NCBI GenBank assembly: GCA_039589315.1
Contig: JBDHHQ010000042.1
Location: 1 to 64,000, forward strand
Source: Gemmatimonadota bacterium
Lineage (GTDB): Bacteria; Gemmatimonadota; Gemmatimonadetes; Longimicrobiales; Gaopeijiaceae
Length of the DNA stretch: 64,000 bases
Reading direction: 5' to 3'
Numbering within the stretch: the stretch's first letter is position 1; each line of letters begins with the position of its first letter. Shown piece by piece: positions 19,978-62,892 of the stretch. The notes under the pieces were generated by a model that saw only the letters and a program-made list of their open reading frames with translations, had not been told where the DNA came from and made no database searches. Position numbers and translations under genes: made by a program.

Positions 19978-20160
19978 GCCACACACTGAGGGACGCACCG
20001 AATCGCCTCGGGACTACGCGCTCTTCCAGCGATCCCATTCTGAAGCGGCAGGCTCCCGAAGGAGCTCCGACGACTGCGCCGCTCCTCGGTAACGCGAGCC
20101 GTGCATTCAGGGCTGTGCCGCCCTATCCTGAAAGCGGTTTGGCTCGAGACCGAGGCCCCG
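19978..20160 (+). repeat. att-like element, distal half (promoter part) upstream of kinase 1
   Basis: Aligns with 62715-62892, including GTGCAT-N17-TATCCT. Confidence 0.75.
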
Positions 20161-22767
20161 ATGTCCGATCCCCTCACCCGCCTGAACGCTGCCCTCGAAG
20201 GCCGCTACCGTATCGAGCGTGAGCTCGGCGAGGGCGGCATGGCCAAGGTCTACGTCGCCAGCGACCTCAAACACGGGCGCAAGGTAGCCCTCAAGGTTCT
20301 GAAGCCCGAGCTCGCTGCGGTCGTGGGCGCAGAGCGCTTCCTGGCCGAGATCAGGACGACGGCCAACCTCCAGCACCCGCACATCCTACCGCTCTTCGAC
20401 TCGGGCGAAGCGGATTCGTTCCTCTTCTACGCCATGCCGTACGTCGAGGGAGAAAGCCTCAGGGAGAGGCTCCGCCAGGAGCGCCAGCTCCCTGTTGACG
20501 ATGCGGTGCAGATCGCGATCAACATCGCCGAGGCTCTCGATTACGCTCACCAGCGGGGTGTCGTCCATCGCGACATCAAGCCTGCGAACATCCTCCTGCA
20601 GGCTGGTCAGCCTGTGATTGCCGACTTCGGGATCGCACTCGCGGTTGGGGGTGCGGGAGAGGCTCGCCTCACCGAAACGGGGCTCAGTCTCGGCACGCCA
20701 CACTACATGAGTCCCGAGCAGGCGACGGGAGACCAGAGGGTCGGTGCCGCGACGGACATCTACGCACTCGGGTGCGTCCTCTACGAGATGCTCGTAGGAG
20801 AGCCGCCATATACGGGCAGTACGCCGCAGGCCATCCTGGGAAAGATCATCGCCAGCGACCCGGAGTCGGTCACGGCCCAGCGGCCGTCGGTTCCCGCGGC
20901 TGTGGACGCAGCGATCGCGAAGGCGCTCGAGGGCCTCGCAGCCGATCGATTTGCGACCGCTGGACGGTTTGCGGAGGCGCTCAGGGACCCCAACTTCCAA
21001 ACAGTCCCCCGCACAGCCGCCACGGCCAAGCGTGCCAGCTCGCCGGGACGCTGGGTGTGGCCGGCCGCGACGATCCTTGCGGCGGCCGTCGCTCTTTGGG
21101 GCTGGCTGCGCCCGGAGGCGCCGCGCCCGGTGGCTCGGACCCAGATCGCGCTGCTCGAGGGTCTGCGCGTGGGTTCGTCCTCGGGCAGCTATCCCCTGGC
21201 CATCACGCGCGACGGCCGTCGAGTGGCCTTCGTGGGCGAGGACGATGGCGGCTCGACTCTGTTCACACGCGCCCTCGACGAACGGGCTCCGACGGCGCTC
21301 GGGGGGACCGGAGGAGGCCGTCAACCGTTCTTCTCTCCCGACGGAGAATGGGTGGGATACTTCGCCGAGGGTCGCCTCAACCGTGTGTCGATCGTCGGTG
21401 GAGCGCCGATCGCGATCACCTCCCTGCCGTCCCGGTCGACGTATGGTGCCAGCTGGGGAGCCGATGGCACGATCGTCTTCAGCGCGGGACCGAGCCTCTA
21501 CCGCGTGTCCGCCGCGGGAGGGGACGCCGAGGCGTTCGCGCTGGCGTTGGAGGGCGATGGTCGGCGGGGCGCCGATTCGACTGCCAACGCGGGCAGCCCC
21601 CGTTGGCCCCACCACCTGCCGGACGGCCGGCACGTGCTGGTGAGTGTGCCAGAAGGCACTGCGGTCGTCGAGCTCGGCAGCGGGAATGCGCGTCTCCTGT
21701 TCCAGGGCACCCAGGCCCGCTTCGTCCCGCCCAGGTACCTCGTGTTCAACGCGGGGGAAGAGAGGCTCCGCGCGGTCGGTTTCGATCTCGGCCGAATCGA
21801 GGTAGTGGGCGCGGCAGTTCCGGCCGTGGAGGGTGTGTTTCGAGCTCCCGGAGGTGGTGCGGCTGCCTTCGCCGTGTCGGAGACAGGCACGCTCGTATTC
21901 GTGCCAGGGGGCTTCGACCGCTCCCTCTGGCTCGTGGACCAGGACGGTCGCGAAGAGCGAGTCCCAGTCGATCCCCGGGGCTATCGCTGGCCGCGGGTCT
22001 CGCCGGATGGCCTTCGTCTCGCAGTGGTCGTGGATCCGCGGCCCTCCCAACTCTGGCTCGTCGATCTCGAGCGAAGAACGTCCGAGCCGCTCACGAGCGA
22101 GGGGCATCACGTAAACCCGGCCTGGGCGCCCGACGCGGAGCGACTCGTGTTCTCGTTGGGGAATGACCTTCACGAGATGCCCTGGAGGTCCCCCGCGTCC
22201 CTGAGGCGAATCAGCGACCGCCCCCTGCCGCAGTACATGCCGTCGTGGTCGATCGATGACTTCGTGATCGTAAACGAGCCCAACCCTGAAAGCGGATGGG
22301 ATCTCATTTCGGTCGACGTTTCGGACGGGTCATCCAGCTCGTTCGAGGTCACGCCGGCGAACGAGATCGTTCCGATGTTTTCTCCCGATGGACGCTGGAT
22401 TGCCTATGCCTCCGACGCCTCCGGCAGATTCGAGGTCTATGTGAGGGCATTCCCCGGCCCGGGTCCGCGCCACACGGTCTCCCTGGACGGGGGATTGGAT
22501 CCCAAGTGGTCAGCAGCGGGTGACGTGATCTTCTACCGGAGCGTTGACCGGCTGTGGGCCGCGGACGTGAGGTCCTCAGCGGGCTTTTCGATCGACCCCC
22601 CACGAGAGCTTTTCGATCTTGCCGGATACGACTTCTCACAACCGAACAATTGGGACGTCACGCCCGACGGACGCTTCGTGATGGTGAAGAGCGATCCCTC
22701 GATGCTCCGCCGACTCGAGCTGGTGCAGAATCTCTCCGCCGACCTCAGGCAGCGAATGGGGAACTGA
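20161..22767 (+). CDS. Ser/Thr protein kinase - TM - TolB/PD40 propeller (paralog 1)
   Basis: VALK, HRDIKPAN, DFG, GTPHYMSPE; TM helix; SPDG repeats. Confidence 0.93.
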   Translation: MSDPLTRLNAALEGRYRIERELGEGGMAKVYVASDLKHGRKVALKVLKPELAAVVGAERFLAEIRTTANLQHPHILPLFDSGEADSFLFYAMPYVEGESLRERLRQERQLPVDDAVQIAINIAEALDYAHQRGVVHRDIKPANILLQAGQPVIADFGIALAVGGAGEARLTETGLSLGTPHYMSPEQATGDQRVGAATDIYALGCVLYEMLVGEPPYTGSTPQAILGKIIASDPESVTAQRPSVPAAVDAAIAKALEGLAADRFATAGRFAEALRDPNFQTVPRTAATAKRASSPGRWVWPAATILAAAVALWGWLRPEAPRPVARTQIALLEGLRVGSSSGSYPLAITRDGRRVAFVGEDDGGSTLFTRALDERAPTALGGTGGGRQPFFSPDGEWVGYFAEGRLNRVSIVGGAPIAITSLPSRSTYGASWGADGTIVFSAGPSLYRVSAAGGDAEAFALALEGDGRRGADSTANAGSPRWPHHLPDGRHVLVSVPEGTAVVELGSGNARLLFQGTQARFVPPRYLVFNAGEERLRAVGFDLGRIEVVGAAVPAVEGVFRAPGGGAAAFAVSETGTLVFVPGGFDRSLWLVDQDGREERVPVDPRGYRWPRVSPDGLRLAVVVDPRPSQLWLVDLERRTSEPLTSEGHHVNPAWAPDAERLVFSLGNDLHEMPWRSPASLRRISDRPLPQYMPSWSIDDFVIVNEPNPESGWDLISVDVSDGSSSSFEVTPANEIVPMFSPDGRWIAYASDASGRFEVYVRAFPGPGPRHTVSLDGGLDPKWSAAGDVIFYRSVDRLWAADVRSSAGFSIDPPRELFDLAGYDFSQPNNWDVTPDGRFVMVKSDPSMLRRLELVQNLSADLRQRMGN

Positions 22768-22808
22768 TGTGCGAGGCGTCTGGCGTGCGACGCTGACTCC
22801 GGCCGGGC

Positions 22809-22890
22809 CAGTTGAATCTCCCTCACCGCGTGACCCCATTCATGATTCCGGAGGGATCCCGATCGGGCGAGGCACACTTCTGGAAGCTTC
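22809..22890 (+). repeat. att-like element, internally deleted copy (degenerate core plus last GGCACAC)
   Basis: TGAATC...CGCGTGACCCCATTCA (core 22831-22842) then GGCACACTTCTG at 22871. Confidence 0.6.
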
Positions 22891-23049
22891 GACGGGTCAG
22901 CCCCAGGACGATCCGAACGGACACATTCGGAGCGCTACCCAGGGCCGCGGCGCGCGTTTCGTTGACGTAGACAAAGACTTACCCGTTGGCGCTATCTTCG
23001 CGGGCGCAAGAAGGGCGCCGTTCTGTGATTGTATCTTCCAACACGAGGC

Positions 23050-24021
23050 ATGCCGGTGACAACCGTACTCGAGCTCGACGAGATCAAGTCTCTTCTCGAC
23101 ACACCACAGCTGATCCAGGAGATCGAAACCGGGTTTGTTCTCTATTCCGAAGGCAGGGTGAACGTCCCTCCGGTTGGGTTCTTACACTTTGACGACCCTC
23201 CAGGCGACGTTCACATCAAGTACGGCTTCATATCCGGCGGCGAGTACTACGTCCTGAAGATGGCATCCGGGTTCTACAACAACCCCGAGCTCGACCTGCC
23301 CGTCGCTGACGGCGTGATCTTGGTCTTCAGTCAGAAGACCGGAGAGCTCGAGCTGATCCTGTTGGACAAATGCTGGCTCACCGACATGCGCACCGCTGCG
23401 GCGGGAGCGGTCGCAGCGAAGCACCTGGCGCCGAAGACCATACATCAGATCGGCATCGTCGGAACTGGCGTGCAGGCGAGGATGCAGCTGGAAATGCTGC
23501 GCACGGTCGTTGACTGCCGGAGCTGCCTCGTCTGGGGCAGGGATTCGACCAAAGTGCAGAGCATGCTCGACGATCTTCAAGCGAACGAGAGCATCCAGGC
23601 CTGGGGGTTGGATATCCAGGCGGCTGAGACCCTGGACGATCTGGTCGCGCAGTGCGATCTCATCGTCACGACGACCTCGGCCAAGAGTGCCTTGATCCGG
23701 GCCGATCAAGTGAGAAAGGGCACGCATATCACCGCGATGGGGTCCGACGATGACGGCAAGCAGGAGCTCGAAGCCGCGGTCTTGGCGAAGGCTGATCGAG
23801 TCGTCGCGGACAGCGTCTCACAGTGCAGCCGATACGGCGAGTGCGTTCATGCGATTCAAGCGGGGCTGATCGAGGAAGATGCCATTCTCGAGCTGGGCCA
23901 AGTGATCAAGAACCCCGAGATCGGACGAACCAGCGAGGACCAGATCACCGTAGCAGACCTGACCGGAGTCGCGGTCCAGGACATCCAAATCGCCAAGATG
24001 ATCGACCGCTACAGAGGGTAG
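23050..24021 (+). CDS. Ornithine cyclodeaminase/mu-crystallin family protein
   Basis: LTDMRTAAAG, GTGVQA, HITAMGSD, DLTGVAVQD. Confidence 0.92.
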   Translation: MPVTTVLELDEIKSLLDTPQLIQEIETGFVLYSEGRVNVPPVGFLHFDDPPGDVHIKYGFISGGEYYVLKMASGFYNNPELDLPVADGVILVFSQKTGELELILLDKCWLTDMRTAAAGAVAAKHLAPKTIHQIGIVGTGVQARMQLEMLRTVVDCRSCLVWGRDSTKVQSMLDDLQANESIQAWGLDIQAAETLDDLVAQCDLIVTTTSAKSALIRADQVRKGTHITAMGSDDDGKQELEAAVLAKADRVVADSVSQCSRYGECVHAIQAGLIEEDAILELGQVIKNPEIGRTSEDQITVADLTGVAVQDIQIAKMIDRYRG

Positions 24022-24044
24022 GATCAGCACGACCGAGGACACAT

Positions 24045-25022
24045 ATGACCATCCAGATTCAACAGCAGCTCGATGTCCCCCGGCTGGTTCTCGAGGCCAG
24101 CGAAAGGTGCAAGGACCACCTCTCGCCCACACCGCTCGAGTACTCGATGTATCTGAGCGAGCAGATCGACGGCGAAGTCTGGCTCAAGCTGGATTCGATG
24201 CAGCGAACCTCGTCGTTCAAGTTTCGTGGTGCGATCAACAAAGTCCTTTCGCTCGCGGAATCAGAGCTCGAGCGGGGCGTGGTCTCGGCGTCGACCGGGA
24301 ACTACGCCCTGGCGGTCGCAGAGGCGGTGAGAATCAGAGGACACCGCGCCACCATCTACGTAGCCGAGGACATGGATCCGTCGCGCCTGGCGCTGTTGAG
24401 GGCTCATGGACTGGACCTGGTGATCCATGGCGCCCTTGCCTGGGATGCCGAGAAGGAAGCGCGACGCGTGGCTGAGGAGGACGGCAAGATCTACGTGTCA
24501 CCCTACAACGATCCCCTCGTGGTTGGGGGACAGGGAACGTGCGGTCACGAGATCTCCAGGCAGCTTCCCGATCTGGACGCGGGCTTCTTCGCCTGCGGGG
24601 CCGGGGGACTGCTCACCGGGTCGGCAGGCTGGCTGAAGTCCCATAACCCCGACGTCGAGGCCTTCGGCGTCTCGCCGGAGAACTCCCCCGTCATGTACGA
24701 ATCCATGCGCGCCAACGAGATAGTCGAGATGGAGACGTACCCGACTCTGGCAGACACCTGTGCCGGCGGGGTGGATCTGGACAGCATCACTTTGGATCTG
24801 TGTCGACGCTACGTCGACGAGATCGTGTTGCTCACCGAGGCGGAGATCAGAGCATCCGTCCGACTGCTGTTCGAGCAGCATCGCCTCGTCGTGGAGGGCT
24901 CAGGAGCGTTGGCGGTCGGGGGTCTCCTGAAGCGGAAAGAGCAGTTCAGGGGCAAGAAGGTGGTCGCTGTCGTGTGCGGACGGAACATCGATCTGGAAGT
25001 GTTCAAAGAGATCATTCAGTAG
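24045..25022 (+). CDS. Threonine/serine dehydratase family PLP enzyme
   Basis: SFKFRGA PLP-lysine motif, STGN, GQGT, GAGGLL, EGSGA, VCGRN. Confidence 0.88.
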   Translation: MTIQIQQQLDVPRLVLEASERCKDHLSPTPLEYSMYLSEQIDGEVWLKLDSMQRTSSFKFRGAINKVLSLAESELERGVVSASTGNYALAVAEAVRIRGHRATIYVAEDMDPSRLALLRAHGLDLVIHGALAWDAEKEARRVAEEDGKIYVSPYNDPLVVGGQGTCGHEISRQLPDLDAGFFACGAGGLLTGSAGWLKSHNPDVEAFGVSPENSPVMYESMRANEIVEMETYPTLADTCAGGVDLDSITLDLCRRYVDEIVLLTEAEIRASVRLLFEQHRLVVEGSGALAVGGLLKRKEQFRGKKVVAVVCGRNIDLEVFKEIIQ

Positions 25023-25077
25023 GGGTGTCGGACGCGGAGGCCGTAATTCAGATCGACTCCCAAGTAGTGAGTCCCTT

Positions 25078-26118
25078 GTGAAGCGAGTCAGGTTGGCCTT
25101 GGTCGGCGTCGGCAACGTGGGACGCCGTGTGCTCGGCCTTCTCGCCGAGCACGACGACACGCTCAGAGCAGAATACGACGTCGCTTTCAGTGTCCACTGC
25201 GTCATGGACAGCAGCGGGGTCGCAATCAGTGACGGGTTCGATCTCAATCGCCTGTTGAAACACAAGCTGGCTGGGCGTAAGCTTCGCGAGTTACCGGAGT
25301 TTCGCGAGGGTCTCGCCCCGGTGAGGGCGCTCGACAGCGTCCAGTGCGACATCCTCTTGGAAGCGTCTCCGGTCAACCTCGAAACCGGCGAGCCGGGTCT
25401 CTCGCTTTGCCGCACCGCGCTCCAGCACGGGCTGCACGTTGCGTTGGCCAACAAGGCCCCGTTGGCGCTTGCCCACGAGGAGCTCGACCGTCTCGCGACC
25501 GCCGCGGGGGTGGGGATCCTCTACAGCGCGACGTTCTGTGGCGGGCTGCCCGTGCTGAACATCATCAGGCGCGACATGGTGTGCGGCAGGGTATTGGCCC
25601 TCCGAGGGATCTTCAACGGAACGACGAACTTCATTCTCGATGAAATGCTCAGTGGACGCGCCTACGCTGATGCGCTCCGCGAAGCACAGGAAAGAGGCAT
25701 TGCGGAAGCCGATCCGAGCATCGACGTGGGTGGCTGGGACACGGCGGCAAAGCTCGTCATCGCCGCCAATACGATCGGAGACACGATGATCACGCTCTCC
25801 GACGTGGATGTGACTGGCATCGAGGACGTGCAGGCCGATCGGCTGCAGGAGTGCCATCGGAGTGGGTCGGTACTCAAGCTGGTGGCTACTGCCGAACGTA
25901 TCGACGGCGAATGGCGTTTCCGGGTCGAACCGACGCCCGTGCCGAGCTCGAGCTTCCTTGGCGGATGCACCGGTTGGGAGATGGCAGTCGAGATCGAGAG
26001 TGATATCTACGGAAGGACCTTCCACAAACTGTGGGAGCGTGAACCCGTACCGACTGCCGCGTCCATGCTCAGAGACGCGGTGCACTTGGCTACGATGGGT
26101 CGCCAGGCTTCGCTCTAA
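25078..26118 (+). CDS. hom: Homoserine dehydrogenase (no ACT domain)
   Basis: GVGNVG, ANKAP, GGLP, GIFNGTTNFIL, AEADPSIDVGGWDTAAK. Confidence 0.85.
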   Translation: MKRVRLALVGVGNVGRRVLGLLAEHDDTLRAEYDVAFSVHCVMDSSGVAISDGFDLNRLLKHKLAGRKLRELPEFREGLAPVRALDSVQCDILLEASPVNLETGEPGLSLCRTALQHGLHVALANKAPLALAHEELDRLATAAGVGILYSATFCGGLPVLNIIRRDMVCGRVLALRGIFNGTTNFILDEMLSGRAYADALREAQERGIAEADPSIDVGGWDTAAKLVIAANTIGDTMITLSDVDVTGIEDVQADRLQECHRSGSVLKLVATAERIDGEWRFRVEPTPVPSSSFLGGCTGWEMAVEIESDIYGRTFHKLWEREPVPTAASMLRDAVHLATMGRQASL

Positions 26119-26228
26119 CTCCAATCAAGGCGCTCCGCAGGAGCAAGGATCTTCGGGAATGCGCCGAAACGGGATTCGGTGCGCGCGGAGCCGGCGTGCT
26201 GCGGGGCAACTCGCCCTAGACCGGGGGA

Positions 26229-29114
26229 TCAACGTGTAACCAGTGGGTCCTCCCGCACCCGCATCGTGCCCGTGTAGACGTCCGACCCCACCGTGAGGGT
26301 CAGCAGGTACGACCCGGCTCCCGCCATGGGAACGTCGAACTCGGGACCGAGGCCAAAGTCGAAGAAGGGGTTCCGAAGCACGGATGCCGCCATCCGCTCC
26401 TCGAGCGGGGTCGAGGCTGCCTCGAACCGGGCCTGGGCCGCCCGGATCCGGTTCGCGAAGAAGCTGCTGACGGTGATGGCGCGGTCGAACGCGGCGTTGA
26501 CCTGCGCCTTCTGCTCGGCCGTGAGCGGGTCCGGATCGAAGGCCAGGTCCCAGCGGGCACGATGTATTCCGGGGCTGCCATCCACCGTCAGAGTCCGGCG
26601 ATTCCGCCCGGAGACGTCCGCAATAGCCAGCGTCACGTCCTCCGCTCCATGGCCGATGTAGTACGACACGAGCGCTACGTTCCGGAACTCGGCCCGGGGC
26701 ACGCTGCTGGTGAGCTCGATGCTCGGAGGGTTTTCGCCCGCGAACCAGTGGTGCCCTCGCTGGCCGCCTCGGCTGGTGTTCTGCCACAACGTCGCCGGGC
26801 GCTGCCGGAACAGGTGCCCGGTCGACGCCATGACCGCGGGCGTGAGTTGCTGAAGCGGTCCGATGTCGTCCGCGATCCAGATACTGCGCCCGTGGGTCCC
26901 GGCCACCAGGTCCCCGTCCCGGGGGTGAATGACGAGATCCTGCGACGCCACCGTCGGCATGCCGTTCATGAACCCGTGCCAGCGCTGTCCGCCGTCGAGG
27001 GTGACGAACACGGCGAACTCGGTTCCCGCGAACAGGAGCTGCGGGTTCCTCGGGTCTTCGCGCACGACGTGGATCACCTGACCGTCGGGGATGTCGCCCG
27101 TGATATTCTCCCAATTGCGGCCGAAGTCCGTGGTCTTGAAGATCCAGGGTGTGAAGACGTCGCTCCGGTGACCGTCGAACGTGACATACGACGTGCCGCT
27201 ATCGAAGTGGGACGCCTCGACCCGTCCGACCCATATGCCATCCGGGACGTCAGGTACGTTGTCTCGCACGTTCGTCCACGTTGCACCGCCGTCCTGGGTG
27301 ACCTGGACATTGCCGTCGTCGGTCCCGGCCCAGATGACGGCGGGGTCGATGGGCGAGGGGGATACCGACGTGAGGCTCGCATGCGTCTCGGCCCCCGAGC
27401 CCTCCCGAGTCAGCCCTCCGTTCCCTTCGGTCGATATCTTCTCCGGATCCGCGTTGGAAAGGTCAGGGCTGATGATCGTCCAGGTCTCGCCTTTGTCTGT
27501 CGTCTTGAACAGGTAGTTCCCGCCGAGGAACAGGTTCGAAGGATCGTGGGGCGACATGACCAGGGGCGCCGACCAGTTGAAGCGGAACTCCCGGCCGGCA
27601 GCCCGCTCCTGGGTCGGGACCCGGTCCGTGTAGTTCGTGATGGTGCGTGGGTTGGGTCGGGACCCGGAGAACTCGTGAGTCTCCACGTTATACCGGCGGA
27701 AGCTCCCACCCTCGGCCTCCGTGTACAGCGTCCGCCAATCCGTAGGATCGACCTGGATATCCTGTCCATCGCCCCAGTGGAGCTTCCAGTTGGAGTCACT
27801 GAGGATGCCGCGGGCGTCCCGACTGAAGCTCGGGCCACCGTAGGTGCCGTTGTCCTGAAGTCCCCCGTACACGTAGTACGGGTCGCGCATGTCGACGCCG
27901 ATCCGGTAGTACTGGCCGAGGGCGATGTTGTCGAGGAACAGGAAGTTCTCGCCGTGGTCGTGCGTCAGGAACGCGCCCTTGTCCTGGCCGATGTAGTACC
28001 GGTCCCGGTTGCCGGGGTCCAGCCACATTGCGTGGAAGTCGCCGTGGATCTCCTCGTCTTCGCTGCCGTTTAGCAGGGTCGTCCCACCGTCCTCGGAAAC
28101 CATGAAGCGGGTGGTGAGCACATACACCCGCTGGTCGTCCTGGGGGTTGATCCGGATCTGCGAGTAGTAGAAGGGTCGGTTGTTGTACGTGTTCACGTAG
28201 GTCCATGACGCGCCGGCATCCTCGGACCGGTAGATGCCGGACCCGGGGCGATTCAGGTCGCCGGTCTGCTCCGCCTCGACGATCGCCATGAGGGTGGACG
28301 GATCCTGCCGGTAGATGGCCAGACCGATCCTGCCCGTCTCGCCTTCGGGGAGACCCCGCGTGAGCTTCGTCCAACTCGCTCCGCCGTCCGTCGACTTGAA
28401 GATCCCGCCGTTCGGACCCCCGCTGTCGAAGTGCCAGGGTTGGCGGATGCGCTCGTAGAACGCCACGTACAGCACGTCGGGGTCGGTGGGGTCCATGACG
28501 ATGTCCGTGGCCCCGGTTCGGCCGTCGTCCGGAAGACCGCCGGCGAGCTTGCTCCAGGCCCGACCGCCGTCGGTCGTCTTGAACAACCCACGGTCGCCGG
28601 AGAATCCCCACAAGTGCCCGACGGCCGCGACATAGGCCACGTCGGAGTCCGTTGGATGGGTCAGGACCCGGGCGATCTGATGGGTGTCCTCCAAGCCAAG
28701 GTGGCGGAAGGATGCGCCGCCGTCGTCGGATCGGTAGACGCCGTTGCCCCAGCTCACACTGTTCCGGTTGTTCGCCTCGCCCGTGCCGACCCACACGATG
28801 TCGGGGTCGGGCTGGAACACCGCGATGTCCCCGACGGAGACGACCGGGTAGTCGTCGAAGATCGGGGTCCACGACGTGCCCGCATTCGCGGATTTCCACA
28901 CTCCACCCGAGGCCGTGCCCAGGTAGACCTGCGTGAAGTCGTCGTTGACCGCTTCGATGTCCACGATGCGGCCGCCCATGTTTGCCGGTCCGATGTTCCG
29001 CCAGCGAAAGGACTGGAGGAGCTGTTCGGGGGACGCCTGAGCCCAGACCGGTTCAACAAACGCCAGGAGGGCGACGACGACGCCACAAACGGTTCGGAGC
29101 GGGTTCCGGCGCAT
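26229..29114 (-). CDS. BNR/Asp-box (VPS10/sialidase-like) secreted protein
   Basis: WRNIGPANMGGRI, repeated S/T-x-D-G-G-x-S/T-W Asp-boxes, GGLQDNG, THGRS. Confidence 0.9.
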   Translation of the reverse strand: MRRNPLRTVCGVVVALLAFVEPVWAQASPEQLLQSFRWRNIGPANMGGRIVDIEAVNDDFTQVYLGTASGGVWKSANAGTSWTPIFDDYPVVSVGDIAVFQPDPDIVWVGTGEANNRNSVSWGNGVYRSDDGGASFRHLGLEDTHQIARVLTHPTDSDVAYVAAVGHLWGFSGDRGLFKTTDGGRAWSKLAGGLPDDGRTGATDIVMDPTDPDVLYVAFYERIRQPWHFDSGGPNGGIFKSTDGGASWTKLTRGLPEGETGRIGLAIYRQDPSTLMAIVEAEQTGDLNRPGSGIYRSEDAGASWTYVNTYNNRPFYYSQIRINPQDDQRVYVLTTRFMVSEDGGTTLLNGSEDEEIHGDFHAMWLDPGNRDRYYIGQDKGAFLTHDHGENFLFLDNIALGQYYRIGVDMRDPYYVYGGLQDNGTYGGPSFSRDARGILSDSNWKLHWGDGQDIQVDPTDWRTLYTEAEGGSFRRYNVETHEFSGSRPNPRTITNYTDRVPTQERAAGREFRFNWSAPLVMSPHDPSNLFLGGNYLFKTTDKGETWTIISPDLSNADPEKISTEGNGGLTREGSGAETHASLTSVSPSPIDPAVIWAGTDDGNVQVTQDGGATWTNVRDNVPDVPDGIWVGRVEASHFDSGTSYVTFDGHRSDVFTPWIFKTTDFGRNWENITGDIPDGQVIHVVREDPRNPQLLFAGTEFAVFVTLDGGQRWHGFMNGMPTVASQDLVIHPRDGDLVAGTHGRSIWIADDIGPLQQLTPAVMASTGHLFRQRPATLWQNTSRGGQRGHHWFAGENPPSIELTSSVPRAEFRNVALVSYYIGHGAEDVTLAIADVSGRNRRTLTVDGSPGIHRARWDLAFDPDPLTAEQKAQVNAAFDRAITVSSFFANRIRAAQARFEAASTPLEERMAASVLRNPFFDFGLGPEFDVPMAGAGSYLLTLTVGSDVYTGTMRVREDPLVTR

Positions 29115-29228
29115 GACGCTACTCCACGGTTCGGGGGATGGGCCGATCTATGGAGTCGTCTCGCGAGGGTCAAGGGCGCGAGCATCGGACGACTTGGAGC
29201 TTGCCGACCGGAGAGGGGTCCCGGTCGA

Positions 29229-29335
29229 GAGCGGCACACTCCCGCGGCGGACCTGGTGATGACGACCGAGAGCTCGCAAAGGTAAGTCGTGCGTTCTGTG
29301 ATGCACTGCCCTATCGTGGAGACCGGTTTCCCTGC
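29229..29335 (+). repeat. att-like element, degenerate distal part upstream of the MDR gene
   Basis: GCGGCACACT...GACCT and GTGCGT-N17-TATCGT match the element's 3' part. Confidence 0.55.
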
Positions 29336-29381
29336 CCGCCCCGATCCATCGCTCCATTCCCCAGACCTGACGGACAAGCAA

Positions 29382-33762: not shown

Positions 33763-36348
<2,586 letters not shown>

Positions 36349-36396: not shown

Positions 36397-36422
36397 AGCG
36401 GCACACTTCTGCGGGACCTCCG
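36397..36422 (+). repeat. Short fragment of the att-like element
   Basis: GAGCGGCACACTTCTGCGGGACCT closely matches 48159-48180. Confidence 0.45.
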
Positions 36423-39546: not shown

Positions 39547-39556
39547 TATGACCACG

Positions 39557-53967: not shown

Positions 53968-54037
53968 CGATTCCCGACAGCGTGTCGCAGATGGAGTTCC
54001 TTGCGTCTACGCAGCGGCTCGGTGGATCTTGGGCTCC

Positions 54038-56731
54038 ATGTCCGATCCCGTCACCCGCCTGAACGAGGCCCTCGAAGGCCGCTACCACATCGAGCGAGAG
54101 CTTGGTGAGGGCGGCATGGCCACGGTGTACCTGGCCAAGGACCTCAAACACAATCGCCACGTTGCCCTCAAGGTCCTGAAGCCCGAGCTCGCCGCGGTGG
54201 TCGGAGCCGAGCGCTTTCTCGCCGAGATCGAGACCACCGCCAATCTGCAGCACCCGCACATCCTGCCGCTCTACGATTCCGGCGAAGCGGACTCGTTTCT
54301 CTTCTACGTGATGCCCTTCGTGGAAGGCGAGTCGTTGCGGGAGCGTCTCGATCGCGAGAAGCAGCTTCCCGTGGACGAGGCCGTGCGGATCGTTTCAGCG
54401 GTCTCAGGCGCGTTGGACTATGCGCATCGGCACGGGGTGGTTCACCGAGACATCAAGCCGGCCAACGTCCTGCTTCAGGATGACCAGCCCGTCGTGGCCG
54501 ATTTCGGGATCGCGCTCGCCGTCGGCGCGGCGGGCGGGGCCCGTCTAACAGAAACCGGTCTCAGTGTAGGGACTCCATACTACATGAGTCCCGAGCAGGC
54601 GACGGGTGACCAGCACGTGGGTCCGGCGAGCGACATCTACGCGGCGGCAGCCGTTCTCTACGAGCTCCTGACGGGAGAGCCCCCCTACATGGGCACGACG
54701 GCCCAGGCCGTGCTCGGGAAGATCCTGCAGGGCGATCCCGTGTCCGCGACCGCGCTCCGCAGGTCGGTGCCGACGAACGTGGACGCTGCAATTCGCCGTG
54801 GCCTCGAGAAGTTGCCGGCCGACCGATTCGGCTCGGCGCAGCAATTCTCGAACGCTCTGGCGGATCCCGTGTTCCGACACGGAACGGCCGAGCAGGCGAG
54901 CGTTGGGGTAGGGGAGCGTCGCTGGCGGACCATCGCGTTGACGGCCAGCGCGTTGGCCGTACTTGGGTTCACCCTAGCCGGGCTGGGTCGAACCGGCGGA
55001 TCGACCGGCGCCGGTCCCGGCGAGAGTGACCGCATTCCCATCCCGGCGTTCGGAGACGACCTGCTGCGCCCCATTGCGCGGCATTCGGCGTTGGCGCCCG
55101 ACGGCTCCTCCATGGTCTTCGGCGAATCGGCGGACGGGGGCGGGACGTGGCAGCTTTGGCTCAAGCCACGCTCGTCAGAGGCGGCCCGCCCCCTTCCGGG
55201 CACCGAGCAGGCGCAGAATGTGATCTACTCGCCCGACTCGCAATGGATCGCGTTCGTGGCGGAGGGCGAGCTGAAGAAGCTCCGGTTGGTCGACGGATTT
55301 GTGGTCACGATGGCTTCGGACTTGGCCGGCGGGAACATGATCGCCGTCGCCTGGCTCGACGACGGCTCGATCGTCTATGAGTTGCCGACGAACGTGCTGA
55401 TGCGCATACCGGACACGGGCTCCGAGGCGCCCGACACGCTCGTCGACTACGGAGGGCAGGGGTTCGGGCAGCTCGCGTTCGCCGGGCCGCTGCCCGGATC
55501 CGGCGGGGTGTTGGTGACGATCTGCAGACAGGTGCAGGGGGGGTGCGGCAGCGACATGTCTCTGGCCGTGTACGACGTGGCGGCGGATTCCACACGCCAG
55601 CTCCTGAAGGACGTGGCCCGCGGCTGGTATCTCCAGCCGGGAAGGCTCCTCTACGTGAACCGAGCCGGCGCCGTTTTCATCGCGCCGTTCGATCTGGATG
55701 CACTTCGACTCACGGGTCCGGGGGTCCCGCTGTTCGATGACGTCGCGGTGGCGATTTCCGCGCCCGAGATGGCGGTCAGTGCAGCTGGGAACATGCTGTA
55801 CGCCCGGGCCAGTAGTGCCCGACGGGTTAGAATCCGACGGTTCGTGTGGGTAGAGCGAGACGGAGCAGTCACTCCCGTAGCGGCGCCGGCGGCGGCGTAC
55901 GGCGACGCGTCCCTCGCCCTGGACGGAACCCGCTTGGTCACCTCCATCTATGAGTCCGAGCAGCGCACCAACCTTTGGATTTGGAGGCTGCCCGACGGGC
56001 CCTCGGTCCGGCTGACCACCGGTGAGGAATGGGCCCGTCGACCCATCTGGCTCTCGGATTCGCGGATCGGCTACGTGGTCACGGGAACCGCGGGAGGTAT
56101 TCGAGCGTTACCCGCGGACGGAAGCTCGGGGGGCGCCTTCGACCAGGTAGCGCAGCCCCCGAGCGTCTTTGAATTCGCACCCGTGCCGAACAGCAACGTG
56201 GCGGTTATCCGGCGTGGCAGCCCGGACGCCGCCCGTTCGGATATCGGCACGGTCGATCTCGAGACGGGGGACATCGCGGATCTGGTGGCCTCCGAGTTCG
56301 ACGAATACGCCGTCAACGTGTCTCCCGACGGTCGCTGGATTGCCTACGTTTCGAACGCAACGGGCGCACAACAGGTCGTGGTTCGGCCCTTCCCCGGTGC
56401 AGACGCTCAGATCCCGGTCTCCGGTCAGGGGAGCCTGAGCCCGGTCTGGGCTCGGAACGGACGGGAGCTCTTCTACATCGACGGCGACGGCTGGCTCGTG
56501 TCCGCCGAATACGAGGGGGACCCCGCGTTCGAGATCACCAACCGGACCAGCCTGTTCGACACGGGGCGTTTCACGTGGGAGGACTTCGGCTGGCGCGTGT
56601 TCGACGTCTCGCCCGACGACCAGCGGTTCCTGTTCCGAGAGTTGGCCCAGGACGAGGACGACGAGCCGGGTGCGGAGTTCGTCCTATGGCTCAACTTCGT
56701 GGCTGAGGTGGAGGCGCTCGTCGGTGGATAG
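54038..56731 (+). CDS. Ser/Thr kinase - TM - TolB/PD40 propeller (paralog 6)
   Basis: MSDPVTRLN start, all kinase motifs, propeller repeats. Confidence 0.93.
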   Translation: MSDPVTRLNEALEGRYHIERELGEGGMATVYLAKDLKHNRHVALKVLKPELAAVVGAERFLAEIETTANLQHPHILPLYDSGEADSFLFYVMPFVEGESLRERLDREKQLPVDEAVRIVSAVSGALDYAHRHGVVHRDIKPANVLLQDDQPVVADFGIALAVGAAGGARLTETGLSVGTPYYMSPEQATGDQHVGPASDIYAAAAVLYELLTGEPPYMGTTAQAVLGKILQGDPVSATALRRSVPTNVDAAIRRGLEKLPADRFGSAQQFSNALADPVFRHGTAEQASVGVGERRWRTIALTASALAVLGFTLAGLGRTGGSTGAGPGESDRIPIPAFGDDLLRPIARHSALAPDGSSMVFGESADGGGTWQLWLKPRSSEAARPLPGTEQAQNVIYSPDSQWIAFVAEGELKKLRLVDGFVVTMASDLAGGNMIAVAWLDDGSIVYELPTNVLMRIPDTGSEAPDTLVDYGGQGFGQLAFAGPLPGSGGVLVTICRQVQGGCGSDMSLAVYDVAADSTRQLLKDVARGWYLQPGRLLYVNRAGAVFIAPFDLDALRLTGPGVPLFDDVAVAISAPEMAVSAAGNMLYARASSARRVRIRRFVWVERDGAVTPVAAPAAAYGDASLALDGTRLVTSIYESEQRTNLWIWRLPDGPSVRLTTGEEWARRPIWLSDSRIGYVVTGTAGGIRALPADGSSGGAFDQVAQPPSVFEFAPVPNSNVAVIRRGSPDAARSDIGTVDLETGDIADLVASEFDEYAVNVSPDGRWIAYVSNATGAQQVVVRPFPGADAQIPVSGQGSLSPVWARNGRELFYIDGDGWLVSAEYEGDPAFEITNRTSLFDTGRFTWEDFGWRVFDVSPDDQRFLFRELAQDEDDEPGAEFVLWLNFVAEVEALVGG

Positions 56732-56781
56732 TCAGCGTGGCCTGATGGCCGAGCTACACTCGTGCCGCCGGCGAGGCGAAC

Positions 56782-59424
56782 ATGTCTGATCCCGTCAGCC
56801 GCCTGAACACGGCCCTCGAAGGCCGCTACCGCATCGAACGCGAGCTCGGTGAGGGCGGGATGGCAACCGTCTACCTGGCCAAGGACCTCAAGCACAACCG
56901 GAATGTCGCCCTCAAGGTTCTGAAGCCCGAGTTGGCCGCAGTCGTGGGGGCGGAGCGCTTCTTGGCCGAGATCGAGACGACGGCCAACCTGCAGCACCCC
57001 CACATCCTTCCGCTGTTCGACTCGGGGAAGGCAGGTTCATTCCTCTTCTACGTCATGCCGTACATCGAAGGGGAGACCCTCAGGGACCGCATCGATCGGG
57101 AGAAACAGTTGCCGGTCGATGAAGCCCTCGGCATCGCGACGGCTGTGGCCACTGCTCTTCACGCCGCTCACTCGCGCGGTGTTGTCCATCGGGACATCAA
57201 GCCGGGGAATATCCTGCTGAGTCAGGGGCAGCCGCTGGTTGCCGACTTCGGCATCGCACTCGCCGTCAGTGCAGGTGGGGCTGGGCGCCTCACCGAGACC
57301 GGTCTCTCGCTGGGAACGCCATACTACATGTCTCCGGAGCAGGCGACGGGAGATCAGGCGGTCGGCCCTGCCAGCGACACCTTCGCGCTTGCGTGCGTGC
57401 TGTACGAGATGCTGGTCGGTGAGCCGCCCTATCCTGGCAACACTGCGCAGGCCGTGTTGGGCAAGATCATCCAAGGCGAACCCGTGTCCGCGACGACGAT
57501 CCGACGATCGGTTCCAGCCAACGTGGACGCGGCAATAAGAAAGGCACTCGAAAGGTTGCCCGCCGATCGGTTCACGGGCGCACAGGGTTTTGCCAAGGCG
57601 CTTGCCGACCCCTCGTTCCGGCACGGTGACCACACAGTATCCGGGATCCGCGGGAGCGGAAGTCCGTGGAACCGGATTTCGATCGGCATGACCATCGTGT
57701 CTGCGCTCCTCGCATTGTCCACTGCATGGGCGTTTTTGCGTCCCGGACCTCCCGAGGCCCCAAGGCACGTCGAGCGTTTCGAGGCTCCGTTCCGGGAGGG
57801 GCAGGGGCCCACGACTCCTGGACCGACTGGTTTCGACCTCTCCCCCGACGGGACCATGGTCGTGTACCGCATCGCCGGCGGACGCCTTATGGTGCGGCGG
57901 TGGGACGATCCAACGGCGACGCTCATTCGAGAGACCGGCGCATCACGCTCACCGGCGGTGTCCCATGACGGGCTCGAAGTCGCTTTCGGCAGCGTCGACG
58001 GGGACATCCAGGTGGCCGCCTTTGCCGGAGGACCCGTGCGAACACTGACGGCCGGCTTCGCTCCCGAGTGGGGACGCGACGGCTTCGTGTACGCCACCAC
58101 AGACTCCGGCGCTGTTCGCATCCCCTCAACCGGTGGAGCGGTGGAGTACGTGTCTCGGCTCTCCGAAGGGGAGAGAGCACACTACGTGTACGACCTGCTT
58201 CCGGGTGACCGTGGGGCGTTGCTGATGGTCGACACGGACCAATCCTGGGAGGTCCGGACGCTGGATCTCGAATCCGGAGAGATGTCGCGGATCGTCGACG
58301 GACAGTACCCGAGGTATGCCCTCTCGGGGCATTTGGTCTACAGCGCGTTGGACGGCACCGTCATGGCCGCGACCTTCGACCCCGACCAGATGGAGATGTC
58401 AGGGGCCCCGATCCCAGTTATGGACGGCGTCTCTGCTTGGTCGATAGCCGAAGACGGGAAGTTCTTCTATAGCCGCGGCGGACCCAGTAGCTCCGCATCG
58501 GGACCGGTGCAGCAGCTCGCGTGGGTGACCCGAGGCGGGCAGGCAAGCCCTGTGGACCCGGATTGGGTCTACAACCGCGGTCCTGACTCGGAGGTGGGCC
58601 TGAGCCTTTCGCCCGACGGCTCGATGGTCGTTCTCCGGGAGTTTTCCCAAGGGGGGTACGACATTTGGGTGAAGCGCCTCGACGCCGGCGCTCACTCGCG
58701 GCTGACGTTCGACGAGGCGGCTGAGAAGATGCCGGTATGGGAGCCGGGCGGTCGAAACATCACCTTCCTGTCCAATCGGAACGGGAACTTCGATGTCTGG
58801 TCCAAGGCCGCGGACGGGACCGGAGAGCCCGAGTTGCTCCTGGACATCGAGGAAGACCTTCTCAGCGCACGGTGGAGTCCAGATGGGGAATGGTTGATCC
58901 TTTGGACCGCGGATGAGGACATCCTCGGCTACCGCCCCGGCGAAGACGCCGAACCGATTCCCCTGCTTGTCGGGGAGTATGACGCTCAGGATGCGGCAAT
59001 CTCACCCGACGGTCGTTGGGTCGCATACGCGTCAGACGAAACCGGTGTGAACCACGTCTACGTTCGACCATTCCCCGACGTGGACGCCGGACGGTGGCAG
59101 GTCTCGAGCAGTCCGGCGCGCTATCCCCGCTGGGCGCACGGTGGCAGCGAGCTCTACTTCCAGGACAACGGCGCGGCTCCGTCCATGTGGATGGTCGAGT
59201 ACGAAGCCACGGAAGGCTTCCGGTTCGAGACACCCATCAAGATGTTCGATTCCCCTGGCTGGGTCGGATCGGCTCAATTCGGAGAAGCCTTTGAAGTCGC
59301 GCCGGAGGACGATCGCTTTCTGATTCCCACATTGGCTCAGGGAGATGGCGATGGCAGTCAGGGGCCTCCGTTCATCCTGATAAACAACTTCTTCGAGGAG
59401 TTGAAGCGGCTGGTGCCGAACTGA
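56782..59424 (+). CDS. Ser/Thr kinase - TM - TolB/PD40 propeller (paralog 7)
   Basis: All kinase motifs; ends NNFFEELKRLVPN. Confidence 0.93.
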   Translation: MSDPVSRLNTALEGRYRIERELGEGGMATVYLAKDLKHNRNVALKVLKPELAAVVGAERFLAEIETTANLQHPHILPLFDSGKAGSFLFYVMPYIEGETLRDRIDREKQLPVDEALGIATAVATALHAAHSRGVVHRDIKPGNILLSQGQPLVADFGIALAVSAGGAGRLTETGLSLGTPYYMSPEQATGDQAVGPASDTFALACVLYEMLVGEPPYPGNTAQAVLGKIIQGEPVSATTIRRSVPANVDAAIRKALERLPADRFTGAQGFAKALADPSFRHGDHTVSGIRGSGSPWNRISIGMTIVSALLALSTAWAFLRPGPPEAPRHVERFEAPFREGQGPTTPGPTGFDLSPDGTMVVYRIAGGRLMVRRWDDPTATLIRETGASRSPAVSHDGLEVAFGSVDGDIQVAAFAGGPVRTLTAGFAPEWGRDGFVYATTDSGAVRIPSTGGAVEYVSRLSEGERAHYVYDLLPGDRGALLMVDTDQSWEVRTLDLESGEMSRIVDGQYPRYALSGHLVYSALDGTVMAATFDPDQMEMSGAPIPVMDGVSAWSIAEDGKFFYSRGGPSSSASGPVQQLAWVTRGGQASPVDPDWVYNRGPDSEVGLSLSPDGSMVVLREFSQGGYDIWVKRLDAGAHSRLTFDEAAEKMPVWEPGGRNITFLSNRNGNFDVWSKAADGTGEPELLLDIEEDLLSARWSPDGEWLILWTADEDILGYRPGEDAEPIPLLVGEYDAQDAAISPDGRWVAYASDETGVNHVYVRPFPDVDAGRWQVSSSPARYPRWAHGGSELYFQDNGAAPSMWMVEYEATEGFRFETPIKMFDSPGWVGSAQFGEAFEVAPEDDRFLIPTLAQGDGDGSQGPPFILINNFFEELKRLVPN

Positions 59425-59779
59425 CCCACTGAATCCCTGACAATGCGTGAATCCCATTCAGTATTCGGGGTGTTTCGGGGAATTTTGTTGCGTTGTCTTG
59501 AGGTCGGCTAGAGTGCTTTGGGACAAGCACTTAGAACCCTCTCTCTTCGCTTCTGTTCTTCTGCGTTTCCCCCAGTGCGGCCTGGTTGGCACACCAATCG
59601 GCACACTAGCTGGCACACCGGATCGCCTTGGGGCCATGCGCTCTTCCAGCGACCCCGATATGAAGCGGCACACTTCTGCGAAAGTCTGAACACCTAGCCA
59701 ATCGCCGCGAACGAAGGTCGTGCGATTGACGAGCCGGTGTCCTATCGTGAGAGCGATTTGCTTCTCTCGCCGAGGCACT
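59422..59779 (+). repeat. att-like element, full copy with four GGCACAC sites
   Basis: Core variant TGAATCCCATTCA 59448-59460; YGGCACAC at 59587, 59599, 59611 and 59666. Confidence 0.9.
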
Positions 59780-62436
59780 ATGTCCGATCCCGTCACCCGC
59801 CTGAACGCCGCCCTCGAAGGCCGCTACCGCATAGAGCACGAGCTCGGCGAGGGCGGAATGGCCATGGTCTACCTCGCCGATGACCTGCGCCACGAGAGGA
59901 AGGTAGCGCTCAAGGTACTCAAGCCTGAGCTAGCTGCAATCGTCGGGGCTGAGCGCTTCCTGGCCGAGATCAAGACGACTGCGAACCTCCAACATCCACA
60001 CATTCTCCCGCTTCACGATTCAGGCGAAGCGGACGGACTCCTGTTCTACATCATGCCCTTTGTGGAGGGCGAGACGCTGCGAGAGCGGATCGACCGCGAA
60101 AAACAACTTCCCGTCGAGGAGGCGGTCGGCATCGCCCGTGCGGTGGCTGGGGCGCTCCAGTCAGCGCACGAGCAAGGCGTTGTGCACAGAGACATCAAGC
60201 CGGCCAATGTGATCTTCATGCGTGGCCAGCCCCTGGTGGCGGACTTTGGGATCGCACTGGCGGTACAGGGGCCGGCGGCGGACGGCTCACTGAGACGGGA
60301 TTGAGCCTCGGCACCCCCTACTACATGAGTCCGGAGCAAGCCTCGGCCGACCGAGACCCGGACGCGCGATCTGACGTCTATAGCCTTGCTTCGGTGCTCT
60401 TCGAGATGCTGACCGGTGAGCCTCCTTTCTCCGGTGCGACGGCGCAGGCGGTCCTGAGCAAGATCCTCACGGCAGATCCGACCCGGCCCACGGAGCTCCG
60501 GAGGTCGATTCCGCCGCACGTGGAGGCAGCGCTCCTGAAGGGGCTGGAGCGTCTTCCGGCCGACCGTTTCGCGTCGGCGGCAGAGTTCGGAGCTGCGGTC
60601 GGTAATCCGGACTTCAGGCACGTTACGGGTGCGTACGGGGAGGTGGGCACCCGGGCAGCGGGGGTGCGCGGTGCGGACCGGCGCGTGCGCGTACTCTCGG
60701 CGCTGGCCGTCGTATTTGCCATGGCGTTCGTCGCCGCGTCTGTGTGGGCGCTGTCCCTCCGGCAGGGGAGTGGCCCGGTAGCGGCGGGGGCGGCAGTCGA
60801 GTTCGTCGTCCAACCTGACTCGACACATCAGATCGTCTCGGGGGTTCCGGCCTCCGTGGCCCTGAATCGGGAGGGAACCGCGGTCGCGTACGTCGGTCGC
60901 CGAACGGACGGCTCCCAGCAAGTCTATATACGTCGCTTCGAGCAGCGCAGCTCGATTCCGGTTCCGGCGTCCGAAGGCGCGGCCTCCGTGGTCTTCTCGC
61001 CGGACGGTGAGTGGGTAGCGTTCTCCACCGTCGACGACGGGGAGCTCCGCAAGGTCCGGACGGACGGTAGCGCTCTGACGACGGTCGCGCCGCTCTCGGG
61101 CGTCTCGTTGGGCGCCGCCTGGGGGGAAGATGACCACATCGTCTACGGCGTCGCGGGCCCGCCGGGCCTTATGCGCGTCTCGGCAGCCGGTGGCGACGCG
61201 GAGGAGATTCTCGCTCAGGAGGGCCCGGTCACCGGGGCCGCCGATCCGGTCCACCTTCCCGGATCCAACGATATTCTGTTCACCGTGATTGGAACCGGGC
61301 CCGAGATTGCCATCCTCGATTCCCAGACCCGGGGACTCACCAGGCTCAAAAGGGGCATGTCCCCCCGGTACGTCGAATCGGCCGCTGTCATGCTCTACGC
61401 CGAGCCCGGCGCGACCGATCAGAACGAGGGGGTGAACGCCGAAGGCTTCGATCTCGCTACTGCAAGTTTCACCGGGGAGCCGAGACGGATCATCGGAGCA
61501 ATCGACGGTTGGCTGACGCTGGCGGCGCTTTTCTCGACCTCCGACGCGGGCGCGATTGCATACCTGAGCGGTTCCCGGGGTGAGGGTGAGTTGCTACTGC
61601 TGGCGCGGGACCTGCGGCAGACGTCGTTCGAGGAGACGACCGGCGCGTCCACTCCAAGGGTTGCCCCCGACGGCGACCGGGTTGTTTACGCAACCCACCG
61701 GGGCGGGCAATCCGCGCTTCACGTCTTTTCGGTGTCCGAGCGAACCACTCGTAGCATCGTTGCGGGTGCGAGCTTCGCCAAGGACCGTATTGAAGCACCG
61801 TCGTGGTCTCCCAGTGGTGACAGCGTCGTCTTCGAGGCTCGCGACGAGGGGGATGGATCCGAGCTGTTCATCGTGTCGGTACGGGGCGGCGCGGTGCGTA
61901 GGCTCGACGCCGAGGGCCCGAACCTGCAGAGGCCCGCGTACACCTGGGACGGGGAGCACGTGGTGTTCACGGTGACCGCCGGAGTCTTCGACGTGCTCGC
62001 CGTGCCTGTGGTGGGCGGTGAGGCGATACCTGTCGCGACTGCTGAAGCCTGGGAGAGTCAGCCGGCGCCTTCACCAGTCGGGCCGTGGATCGCCTACACC
62101 TCCGACGCGACCGGCCGGAGTGAGGTGTACCTCACGCGCTTCCCGCCGGACGGCCGAACCGTATCGGTGTCGAACGAGGGCGGACTGTCGGCCGCCTGGT
62201 CGGCGACGGGCGACACGATCTTCTACTCGAACGGGCTAGAGCTGATCGCGGCGGCGCTCGACCTCGGGGACGAGCCGCGTGTCCTGTCCCGTTCGACGCT
62301 CATGCCGTGGGCCTTCGCGGAAGACCGTATCGCGGGCAGAAGCTACGATGTCCACGCGAACGGTTTCGTGGCTGTTGGAACCCGCGCGGTCGGGGCAGAG
62401 CTGATCGTTCGGACGAGGTTGCCGCTGGAGCGATGA
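59780..62436 (+). pseudogene. Ser/Thr kinase - TM - TolB propeller (paralog 8) with frameshift at G-run 60268-60271
   Basis: Adding one G restores DFGIALAVQGAGGGRLTETGLSLGTP. Confidence 0.85.
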
Positions 62437-62535
62437 GTCGTGCGCCCCACTGCTGCTGACATTGCCGCTTCGCCGAGTCGCTACTCGAAGCTGGTGTACG
62501 GCTCCGTCGATTCGATGTGCTCGACTCCTCGGAAC

Positions 62536-62892
62536 TGACCCACTGAATCCCCGGCAACGCGTGAACCCCATTCAGTATTCGGGGTGTTTCGGGGAGTTCG
62601 GGTGCGTTGTCTTGAGGTCGGCTAGGGTGTTTTAGGACAAGCACTTACAGCCCTCGCTCTTCGCTTCTGTTCTTCTGCGTTCCTGCCTGTGTGGCCCAGT
62701 TGGCACACCAGTCGGCACACTAATCCGCATGCCGAATCGCCCTGCGGCCATGCGCTTTCAGGGTTCCCAATATGAATCGGCACACTTCCGAAGGAGCTGC
62801 GACGGCTGCCGCGGTCCATTGTAACGCGAACCGTGCATTCAGGACGGTGCCGCCCTATCGTGAAAGCGGTTTGGCTTTCAACCGAGGTACCG
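62536..62892 (+). repeat. att-like element, full copy
   Basis: Left arm, core 62562-62574, ACAAGCACTTA, YGGCACAC at 62701, 62713, 62778, GTGCAT(62833)-N17-TATCGT(62856). Confidence 0.9.

Follow-up and report, generated by a model that had tools for sequence, protein, structure and literature searches.

The 64,000-nt window analysed here (positions 1–64000 of contig C42 of the Gemmatimonadota genome G000, a 6.67-Mb assembly of 288 contigs) carries an array in which Ser/Thr kinase genes and unrelated genes are separated by co-oriented copies of a non-coding element of about 370 bp. From its sequence, this repeat can be recognised as the arm-bearing end (the attachment, or att, arm) of a family of integrative elements that targets tRNA-Pro(GGG). 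On balance we favour, with somewhat better than even confidence, the view that the units of the array are non-autonomous mini-islands resembling cis-mobilizable elements (CIMEs), which were accreted by a visiting tyrosine integrase, with later replacement and shuffling of their contents through homologous or illegitimate recombination. This view is carried by the att anatomy of the repeat and its origin from a tRNA, the conservation of its motifs, the integrase-free units, the mosaicism, and the filled and empty alleles of related genomes, all of which are read directly from the sequences.

Anatomy and tRNA-Pro(GGG) origin of the repeated element

The intact tRNA-Pro(GGG) gene of the genome is located on contig C68. 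Positions 47910–47955 of the window match its 3′ half at 46 of 46 bases, the two sequences diverging 4 bases beyond the anticodon loop, which bears out the tRNA-Pro(GGG) derivation proposed in a first-pass annotation of the window. Parts of this 3′ half are kept at five G000 junctions (46 bp at one, 26–36 bp at four); ARAGORN and Rfam report no tRNA and no relevant RNA in the window. The features expected of a lambda-type att site can be read in the element: a core with an inverted stem around a 7-bp overlap, a site resembling that of integration host factor (IHF), and direct-repeat arm sites. The consensus of IHF sites is CAA-N4-TTA, and inspection by eye finds this motif in 7 of the 13 copies aligned, on the right-hand side of the core. 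The distance between core and arm pair, TTGGCACAC-N-GGCACAC, is 136–139 bp for 9 of 10 copies; another arm site, GCACACTTC, lies beyond the pair. Identity among the 10 full-length G000 copies is 100% at the three main arm sites, 94% in the core and 96% in its flank, as against 72, 59 and 51% for the spacers; the att anatomy suggested earlier thus stands, as does the greater conservation of core and arms (94 and 100%) than of the rest of the element (51–72%). The exact arm pair occurs in 25 of the 314 genomes of the family and its reversed control in none, and in many of them a piece of tRNA-Pro, or by eye of another tRNA or transfer-messenger RNA (tmRNA), lies some 140 bp away. The unpublished genomes G037 (locus L031) and G056 carry none of the conclusions drawn here. 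The position of the right side of the element suggests that it serves as leader or promoter; no sigma-70 consensus promoter was called within the element.

A profile built from five copies gives 11 matches in the window and 23 in the G000 genome. Two remnants beyond these matches (22831 and 36398) raise the counts to 25 in the genome and 13 in the window, all of the latter co-oriented, as originally counted. The copies are confined to 5 of the 288 contigs (C42, C151, C156, C210 and C124), are co-oriented within each of them, and on C151 repeat the pattern of element followed by kinase. The eight cores were recovered where they had been placed: seven, all on the plus strand, carry at most one substitution (39571, 41337, 45062, 47942, 50975, 59448 and 62562), and that at 22831 differs by a one-base deletion; 100 shuffles of the window contained 0.04 cores with at most one substitution on average, and never more than one. 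The core-to-core lengths are 1766, 3725, 2880, 3033, 8473 and 3114 bp, and the intervening cargo blocks, mostly single-gene units in co-oriented array, agree upon annotation with their earlier description. Two single-kinase blocks are broken, by an in-frame stop at 49956 and a frameshift near 60270, and behind core 62562 the beginning and the end of a kinase are fused into a gene of 40 codons. The features of the array are as follows (kinase-PD40 denotes a Ser/Thr kinase with a PD40 beta-propeller).

19982–20163, plus: partial element (right part, promoter side) upstream of a kinase (profile match)
20161–22767, plus: Ser/Thr kinase with transmembrane segment and PD40 beta-propeller (Pfam)
22831–22882, plus: core lacking one base, joined to a remnant of the last arm (sequence)
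29216–29340, plus: partial element (last arm and promoter side), about 25 bp upstream of a zinc dehydrogenase gene (profile; comparison with G001)
33505–33765, plus: partial element, arm pair present, core absent (profile match)
33763–36348, plus: kinase-PD40 (Pfam)
36398–36411, plus: last-arm remnant upstream of padR / ADOP permease
39539–39890, plus: near-full element with degenerate tRNA 3′ fragment, core 39571–39583, arm pair 39708–39728
40115–41182, minus: HisC-like pyridoxal phosphate-dependent aminotransferase (under family cut-offs)
41312–41360, plus: R motif and core (double core), arm lost
41347–41805, minus: nucleotidyltransferase (DUF2204/DUF6036), small open reading frame upstream
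42099–42220, plus: remnant of a kinase 3′ end and a 3′ end of an extracytoplasmic function (ECF) sigma gene, 87% like 62974–63095
42268–42401, plus: partial element (promoter side) (profile match)
42399–45038, plus: kinase-PD40 (Pfam)
45037–45199, plus: R motif, core 45062 and IHF-like site, arm pair lost
45468–47306, plus: beta-helix / PKD protein (Pfam)
47585–47909, plus: two copies (about 105 bp) of a second small repeat beside tRNA 3′ fragments
47910–47955, minus: tRNA-Pro(GGG), 3′ half up to and including the anticodon stem-loop, without mismatch (46/46 against C68:21809–21883)
47942–48275, plus: full element with core 47942–47954, IHF-like site 48016–48027, arm pair 48080–48100, last arm 48159–48172 and kinase leader
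48276–50954, plus: kinase-PD40, in-frame TAG at 49956–49958
50953–51306, plus: full element and R motif, core 50975 (one substitution), arm pair 51113–51133
51307–59424, plus: three kinase-PD40 genes (51307–53967, 54038–56731, 56782–59424), no element between them
59423–59779, plus: full element and R motif, core 59448 (one substitution), arm pair 59586–59606
59780–62436, plus: kinase-PD40, frameshift near 60270
62537–62892, plus: full element and R motif, core 62562, arm pair 62700–62720
62893–63015, plus: emptied kinase, first 26 codons joined in frame to the last 14
63019–63579, minus: gene for an ECF sigma factor (TIGR02999), convergent with the emptied kinase

Units, cargo exchange and alleles in related genomes

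At nine G000 junctions a second block, beginning GACCCACTGAAT and here called the R motif, lies 15–25 bp to the left of the core. A homologous R block is present in genus g10 and in G400, which belongs to another genus, so that the double-core block is found in three genera; in g10 it also occurs free-standing, as the right end of inserts. G400 has undergone its own expansion (17 matches on 8 contigs), and G001, from the same genus as G000, has no element and is not syntenic with the window. R motif and core can be read as imperfect inverted TG..CA ends with a 2–5 bp spacer, which may recall the terminal inverted repeats of the miniature transposable elements that derive from insertion sequences and have target duplications and a cognate transposase; the joins to tRNA, however, share a single core.

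In the relatives, the stop codon of trpE is joined to the R block at seven loci with differing left sequence (G010, G452, G454, G455, G456, G457 and L055), and empty alleles, in which trpE abuts its native neighbour, are found in G449 and G450; of the other four genomes queried at trpE, three were left unclassified and one gave no match. The five measurable inserts span 1.5–25.6 kb. In G455 a single unit of element, kinase and R block stands between 32-bp direct repeats that end in the TGAA of the core, and G010 and L055 share this layout at trpE, L055 having three cores that bound two units (0.6 and 3.5 kb), neither with an integrase. The possibility that the end of trpE is a natural look-alike of the core was rejected, both empty alleles being devoid of the motif. 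Both the tRNA-type and the R-type overlap are found joined to the arm, L123 and L158 differing in this from L104, L106 and L046, as would be expected from exchange at the core. Complete two-armed junctions are present in L052, L054 and L055. Directly downstream of an intact tRNA-Pro is where the corresponding islands lie in G304 and G010, the latter with three co-oriented junctions over 99 kb below it; this is not so at the trpE loci, and in G000 contig breaks intervene.

Cargo also appears to have been exchanged away from the core. In many cases no more than the initial 35–150 bp of a kinase separate the element from unrelated cargo, sometimes in frame; such stubs occur at L052, L123, L125 and L126 and in G304, and R motifs are likewise preceded by kinase tails. 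At 29216 the promoter side of the element replaces the native upstream region of the dehydrogenase gene, which is kept in G001. Together with the emptied kinase, these cases indicate exchange outside the core. Breakpoints against G001 and in relatives often fall at the right end of the element or early in the kinase, and the core, proposed as the joint between cassettes, is therefore not the only one; breakpoints in kinase sequence are among the outcomes that the first-pass annotation itself had named as speaking against its proposal. Of the 17 G000 copies that reach the arm region, 10 are followed by a kinase domain, 1 by a stub and 6 by neither, an automatic stub count that misclassed L052 (a 23-codon stub by eye) and includes two unrelated viral matches.

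The kinases themselves are old. In 10 adjacent kinases, identity at four-fold sites is 43%, compared with 36% at saturation. The outer domains of the kinases share about 30% (range 21–47%), the first 40 residues 85%, and the leaders reach 96%. Diverged kinases behind near-identical arms and leaders point to ancient paralogues with young leaders rather than to recent tandem duplicates. Mosaicism extends into the element, whose three segments differ in their nearest neighbours: between 59448 and C151:13430, the last segment is 96% alike, the first 73% and the four-fold sites of the kinases 48%. Element segments do not follow the kinase (rho −0.17 to 0.12, with the weak power of 6 copies), and neighbouring segments correlate modestly with each other (0.38 and 0.52). 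In a tree of 36 arms, the 12 copies of G000 need two changes, a single clade not being rejected (approximately unbiased test, p-AU 0.18), and the 5 of G400 form one side of a branch, a grouping that suggests expansion of the element within lineages. About 42 kinases of this type are present in G000, most of them lacking the element.

Integrases and the origin of the array

None of the 10 PF00589 matches of G000 lies on C42, in keeping with the earlier statement that the window holds no recombinase, nor on C151, C156, C210 or C124, and the units of C42 and C151 contain no integrase remnant. The first-pass annotation suggested looking for an intact tRNA-Pro(GGG) and a tyrosine integrase beyond position 64000; the remainder of contig C42 (64001–71780) contains neither a tRNA nor an integrase, and both are found side by side on C68, where an intact 389-residue tyrosine integrase converges on tRNA-Pro and shares the core. 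The arm repeats of this integrase are ACTCACA, also present beside its 77% identical homologue in G004, and its matching far arm, seen in G457, is again a different sequence (C68 itself ends 540 bp past the integrase gene). None of 30 loci of the C68/C119-type family, which is present in 138 of 314 genomes, has GGCACAC arms after the gene. The C68 enzyme could use the cores as arm-less targets.

GGCACAC arms adjoin another integrase family, of PF14659, PF22022 and PF00589 composition, which is common (199 proteins at E ≤ 0.001). They flank a member at L180, and the viral locus L399 holds a complete two-armed attP beside another; at the tRNA-Ser locus L339 of G304 the adjoining integrase gene is frameshifted. 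Of the 24 viral contigs with the arm pair, most are unrelated and 1 has it beside an integrase (profile), and no viral contig carries the exact tRNA-Pro half. A search pattern of an integrase end followed by the arm was discarded, its matches (46 of 314 genomes) being at control level. GGCACAC is also found on the tRNA side of tRNA-Pro in four genomes. In G304, G356 and G367 the tRNA-side pair is followed by cargo with no integrase, and the helper of the tRNA-Pro lineage was thus not found; a 12-kb tRNA-Pro island in G304 is bounded on either side by GGCACAC arms, and the sole integrase within it is non-cognate.

In the favoured reading, a unit would comprise core, IHF-like site, GGCACAC arms, promoter or leader and cargo, and would be closed by the short core-like R motif. 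A visiting element would supply in trans a tyrosine integrase of the PF14659+PF22022+PF00589 type, which would excise units and insert them at cores, be it in tRNA-Pro, in other units or at secondary sites; insertion at cores would build the array head to tail, and the arms would stay under selection. Homologous or illegitimate recombination in the element, in the conserved first 40 or so kinase codons and in the kinase tail would then swap the interior of a unit, bringing old kinase paralogues and unrelated genes under the leader of the element, from which, we infer, the cargo is expressed; kinase stubs, both 5′ and 3′, and mosaic elements would be left behind. The outcome would behave as a cassette array through the chemistry of islands, not of integrons. 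If this is true, a decayed island end can turn into a reusable frame for the collection and exchange of signalling genes, cassette arrays can arise by a path other than that of integrons, and the large and variable Ser/Thr kinase repertoires of the lineage would be partly explained. The filled and empty trpE alleles of the relatives, together with a named candidate integrase family, make the mechanism directly testable.

Several observations weigh against this reading. Of the GGCACAC-associated family, G000 has only 60 C-terminal residues (on C72) and no intact member, and G400 only 54 residues; a long close member occurs in 2 of the 23 genomes searched, with other arm repeats upstream, and no tRNA-Pro locus with both GGCACAC arms and an adjacent integrase was found. 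No G000 junction keeps the tRNA-side arm, and all nine R motifs of G000 are fused to a core, none being free. At trpE, the far ends of the inserts lack the core in 5 of 5 cases, and 3 of the 5 inserts contain no element. The R and tRNA overlaps differ, and lambda-type integrases reportedly do not tolerate differing overlaps (PMC2817482). The conservation figures refer to full-length copies, truncated or arm-less ones being excluded. As to shuffling that is still going on in trans, the earlier proposal finds no support in G000, the C68 integrase having other arm repeats and the assembly no intact GGCACAC-associated member.

A further-reaching version can be put forward only tentatively: a standing integrase-free cassette system, in which reusable att-arm frames capture any of about 40 receptor-kinase paralogues, or unrelated genes, via kinase ends, and a visiting integrase that accepts mismatches in the overlap carries these frames from core to core. 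Built of tRNA-island parts, such an analogue of the integron would have undergone independent expansion in two genera or more.

The kinase-end breakpoints, the mosaic segments and the clustering of G000 copies in the arm tree are also what a co-opted fossil would leave, that is, an island end that became a kinase leader, spread only by RecA-type exchange and gene conversion among kinase paralogues and kept its arms as operators of a host regulator, with no integrase acting now. The lead of 10 of 17 arm-reaching copies into a kinase, the retention of the promoter side in partial copies and the want of an intact cognate integrase fit as well. We nevertheless regard such a fossil as unlikely: core and flank keep 94–96% identity at a distance of 300 bp from the start codon, arms of the same sequence occur at their usual spacing from fragments of other tRNAs and beside integrases, most of the 42 or so kinases do without the element, and the junctions in G455 are exact direct repeats.

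It is doubtful, too, that the array is a graveyard of ordinary tandem islands, once autonomous at tRNA-Pro, which lost integrase and tRNA-side arm and of which nothing was re-used. Dehalococcoides ssrA arrays offer a precedent, 15 of their islands having no integration module (PMC3146451), and the five G000 junctions with 26–46 bp of the tRNA 3′ half, the three junctions over 99 kb in G010 and the three broken or emptied kinases of the window point the same way. Against a graveyard, the C42 and C151 units contain no integrase remnant, the arms are undecayed, one and the same double-core block is seen at nine junctions and in three genera, and in relatives there are units at trpE, far from the tRNA.

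An active integron-like platform under a resident enzyme is improbable. The intact C68 integrase, with its shared core, and an integron integrase above the TIGR02249 cut-off (C97:388–1353) are candidates for that enzyme, but the former is tied to ACTCACA repeats both here and beside its G004 homologue. The ends of attC sites follow the consensus RYYYAAC/GTTRRRY; such a pair is absent within 80 bp of the core at all 8 cores, and predicted single-strand hairpins clearly beat shuffles (z below −2.5) in only 2 of 10 strands, both from copy 45062. Finally, an artefact of assembly in this metagenome bin (288 contigs, 5% contamination) can practically be dismissed, since no exact repeat of at least 61 bp involves the window and the same anatomy is found in near-complete genomes.

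Comparison with known systems and further observations

Integrons consist of co-oriented, mostly single-gene units with recombination sites (attC) between them, and encode IntI. The array shares this layout, and at trpE in the relatives a fixed site receives variable cargo. It differs in having no attC hairpin or consensus and no linked intI, in its arm and IHF-like motifs, and in the own leader of each unit; the IntI of the genome lies on C97, an unlinked contig (with contig gaps between), and membership among integrons, one of two readings first offered, is not borne out. The other, a tandem mini-island system, fits.

The array can be regarded as a variant of tandem tRNA-island arrays, from which it differs by a multicopy, undecayed single arm with a double core, by single-gene units, non-tRNA sites and exchange at kinase ends. 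As in tandem tRNA islands and CIMEs, the 3′ part of the target gene gave rise to the junctions, and integration and transfer genes are absent from the units, but the units do not each bear both attL and attR arms. Dehalococcoides ssrA arrays likewise have co-oriented fragments of the target gene between tandem islands and accumulate paralogues of one family, there rdhA (PMC3146451); 16 islands have an integration module, 15 have none, and all lie within 100 kb of ssrA. In contrast, no unit here has an integrase, units mostly hold one gene, non-tRNA sites are used too, and each junction keeps an arm of about 230 bp with invariant repeats. The CIMEs of the ICESt1 family also have no integration genes, keep att ends and build up in tandem through incoming elements (PMC5704250); they keep both attL and attR in short tandems, unlike the one arm with a short core-like motif in 25 copies, and the cargo swapped via kinase ends, found here. 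Prochlorococcus tycheposons similarly involve transient integrase-bearing visitors that leave partial tRNAs and cargo, but they encode their own integrase, and their scattered partial tRNAs are described as degenerate remnants, not a conserved multicopy arm (10.1101/2020.12.28.424599); a tRNA-specific integrase within the element is not found here. Mosaics produced by homologous recombination between tandem elements are described for SXT/R391 arrays (PMC2786100), which are large self-transmissible integrative and conjugative elements, unlike the present units. A literature search that did not cover subscription journals gave no description of this system, and PMC11316326 contains nothing on it.

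Several further observations concern integrases, tRNA loci and kinases. Loci L294–L323 carry a multicopy tyrosine-recombinase element with GGCGGGAAT repeats after its stop codon; this family occurs in 138 of 314 genomes, often in six or more copies and mostly with no adjacent tRNA. The arm-to-kinase layout recurs at C119:1424–3887, where integrase, arm pair, tRNA fragment, second arm and kinase come one after the other; the tRNA and the arm repeats are different ones. At L132 a kinase comes after the arm on the tRNA side of tRNA-Sec. Within this bacterial order, tRNA-Pro(GGG) is a hot spot of integration, many of L017–L045 having differing direct-repeat pairs just downstream, and an array of 18 tRNAs lies head to head with it in G000 (C68:16206–18887), G304 (L066), G356 (L135) and G336 (L143). 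The genes at 1641–2833 and 23038–29183 (thrC/hom, VPS10-like, dehydrogenase) are shared with G001 at 77–92% and are there scattered over contigs; at the thrC position of G001, G000 has a kinase (C155). The kinase domain gives 85 tblastn matches in the G000 genome, a short CTTGCG...GGATCTT motif is found upstream of many kinase starts that have no element, and at C151:273–330 a kinase reading frame continues into the core and stops inside the element. The second small repeat (about 50–110 bp) follows tRNA and tmRNA 3′ ends at the T-arm in tandem copies and is widespread in the family. Besides 47585–47909 of the window, it is found on G000 contigs C27, C32, C33, C68, C127, C142, C159, C176 and C184 and at loci L021, L023, L027, L030, L107, L143 and L146, and it is possibly a separate miniature element.

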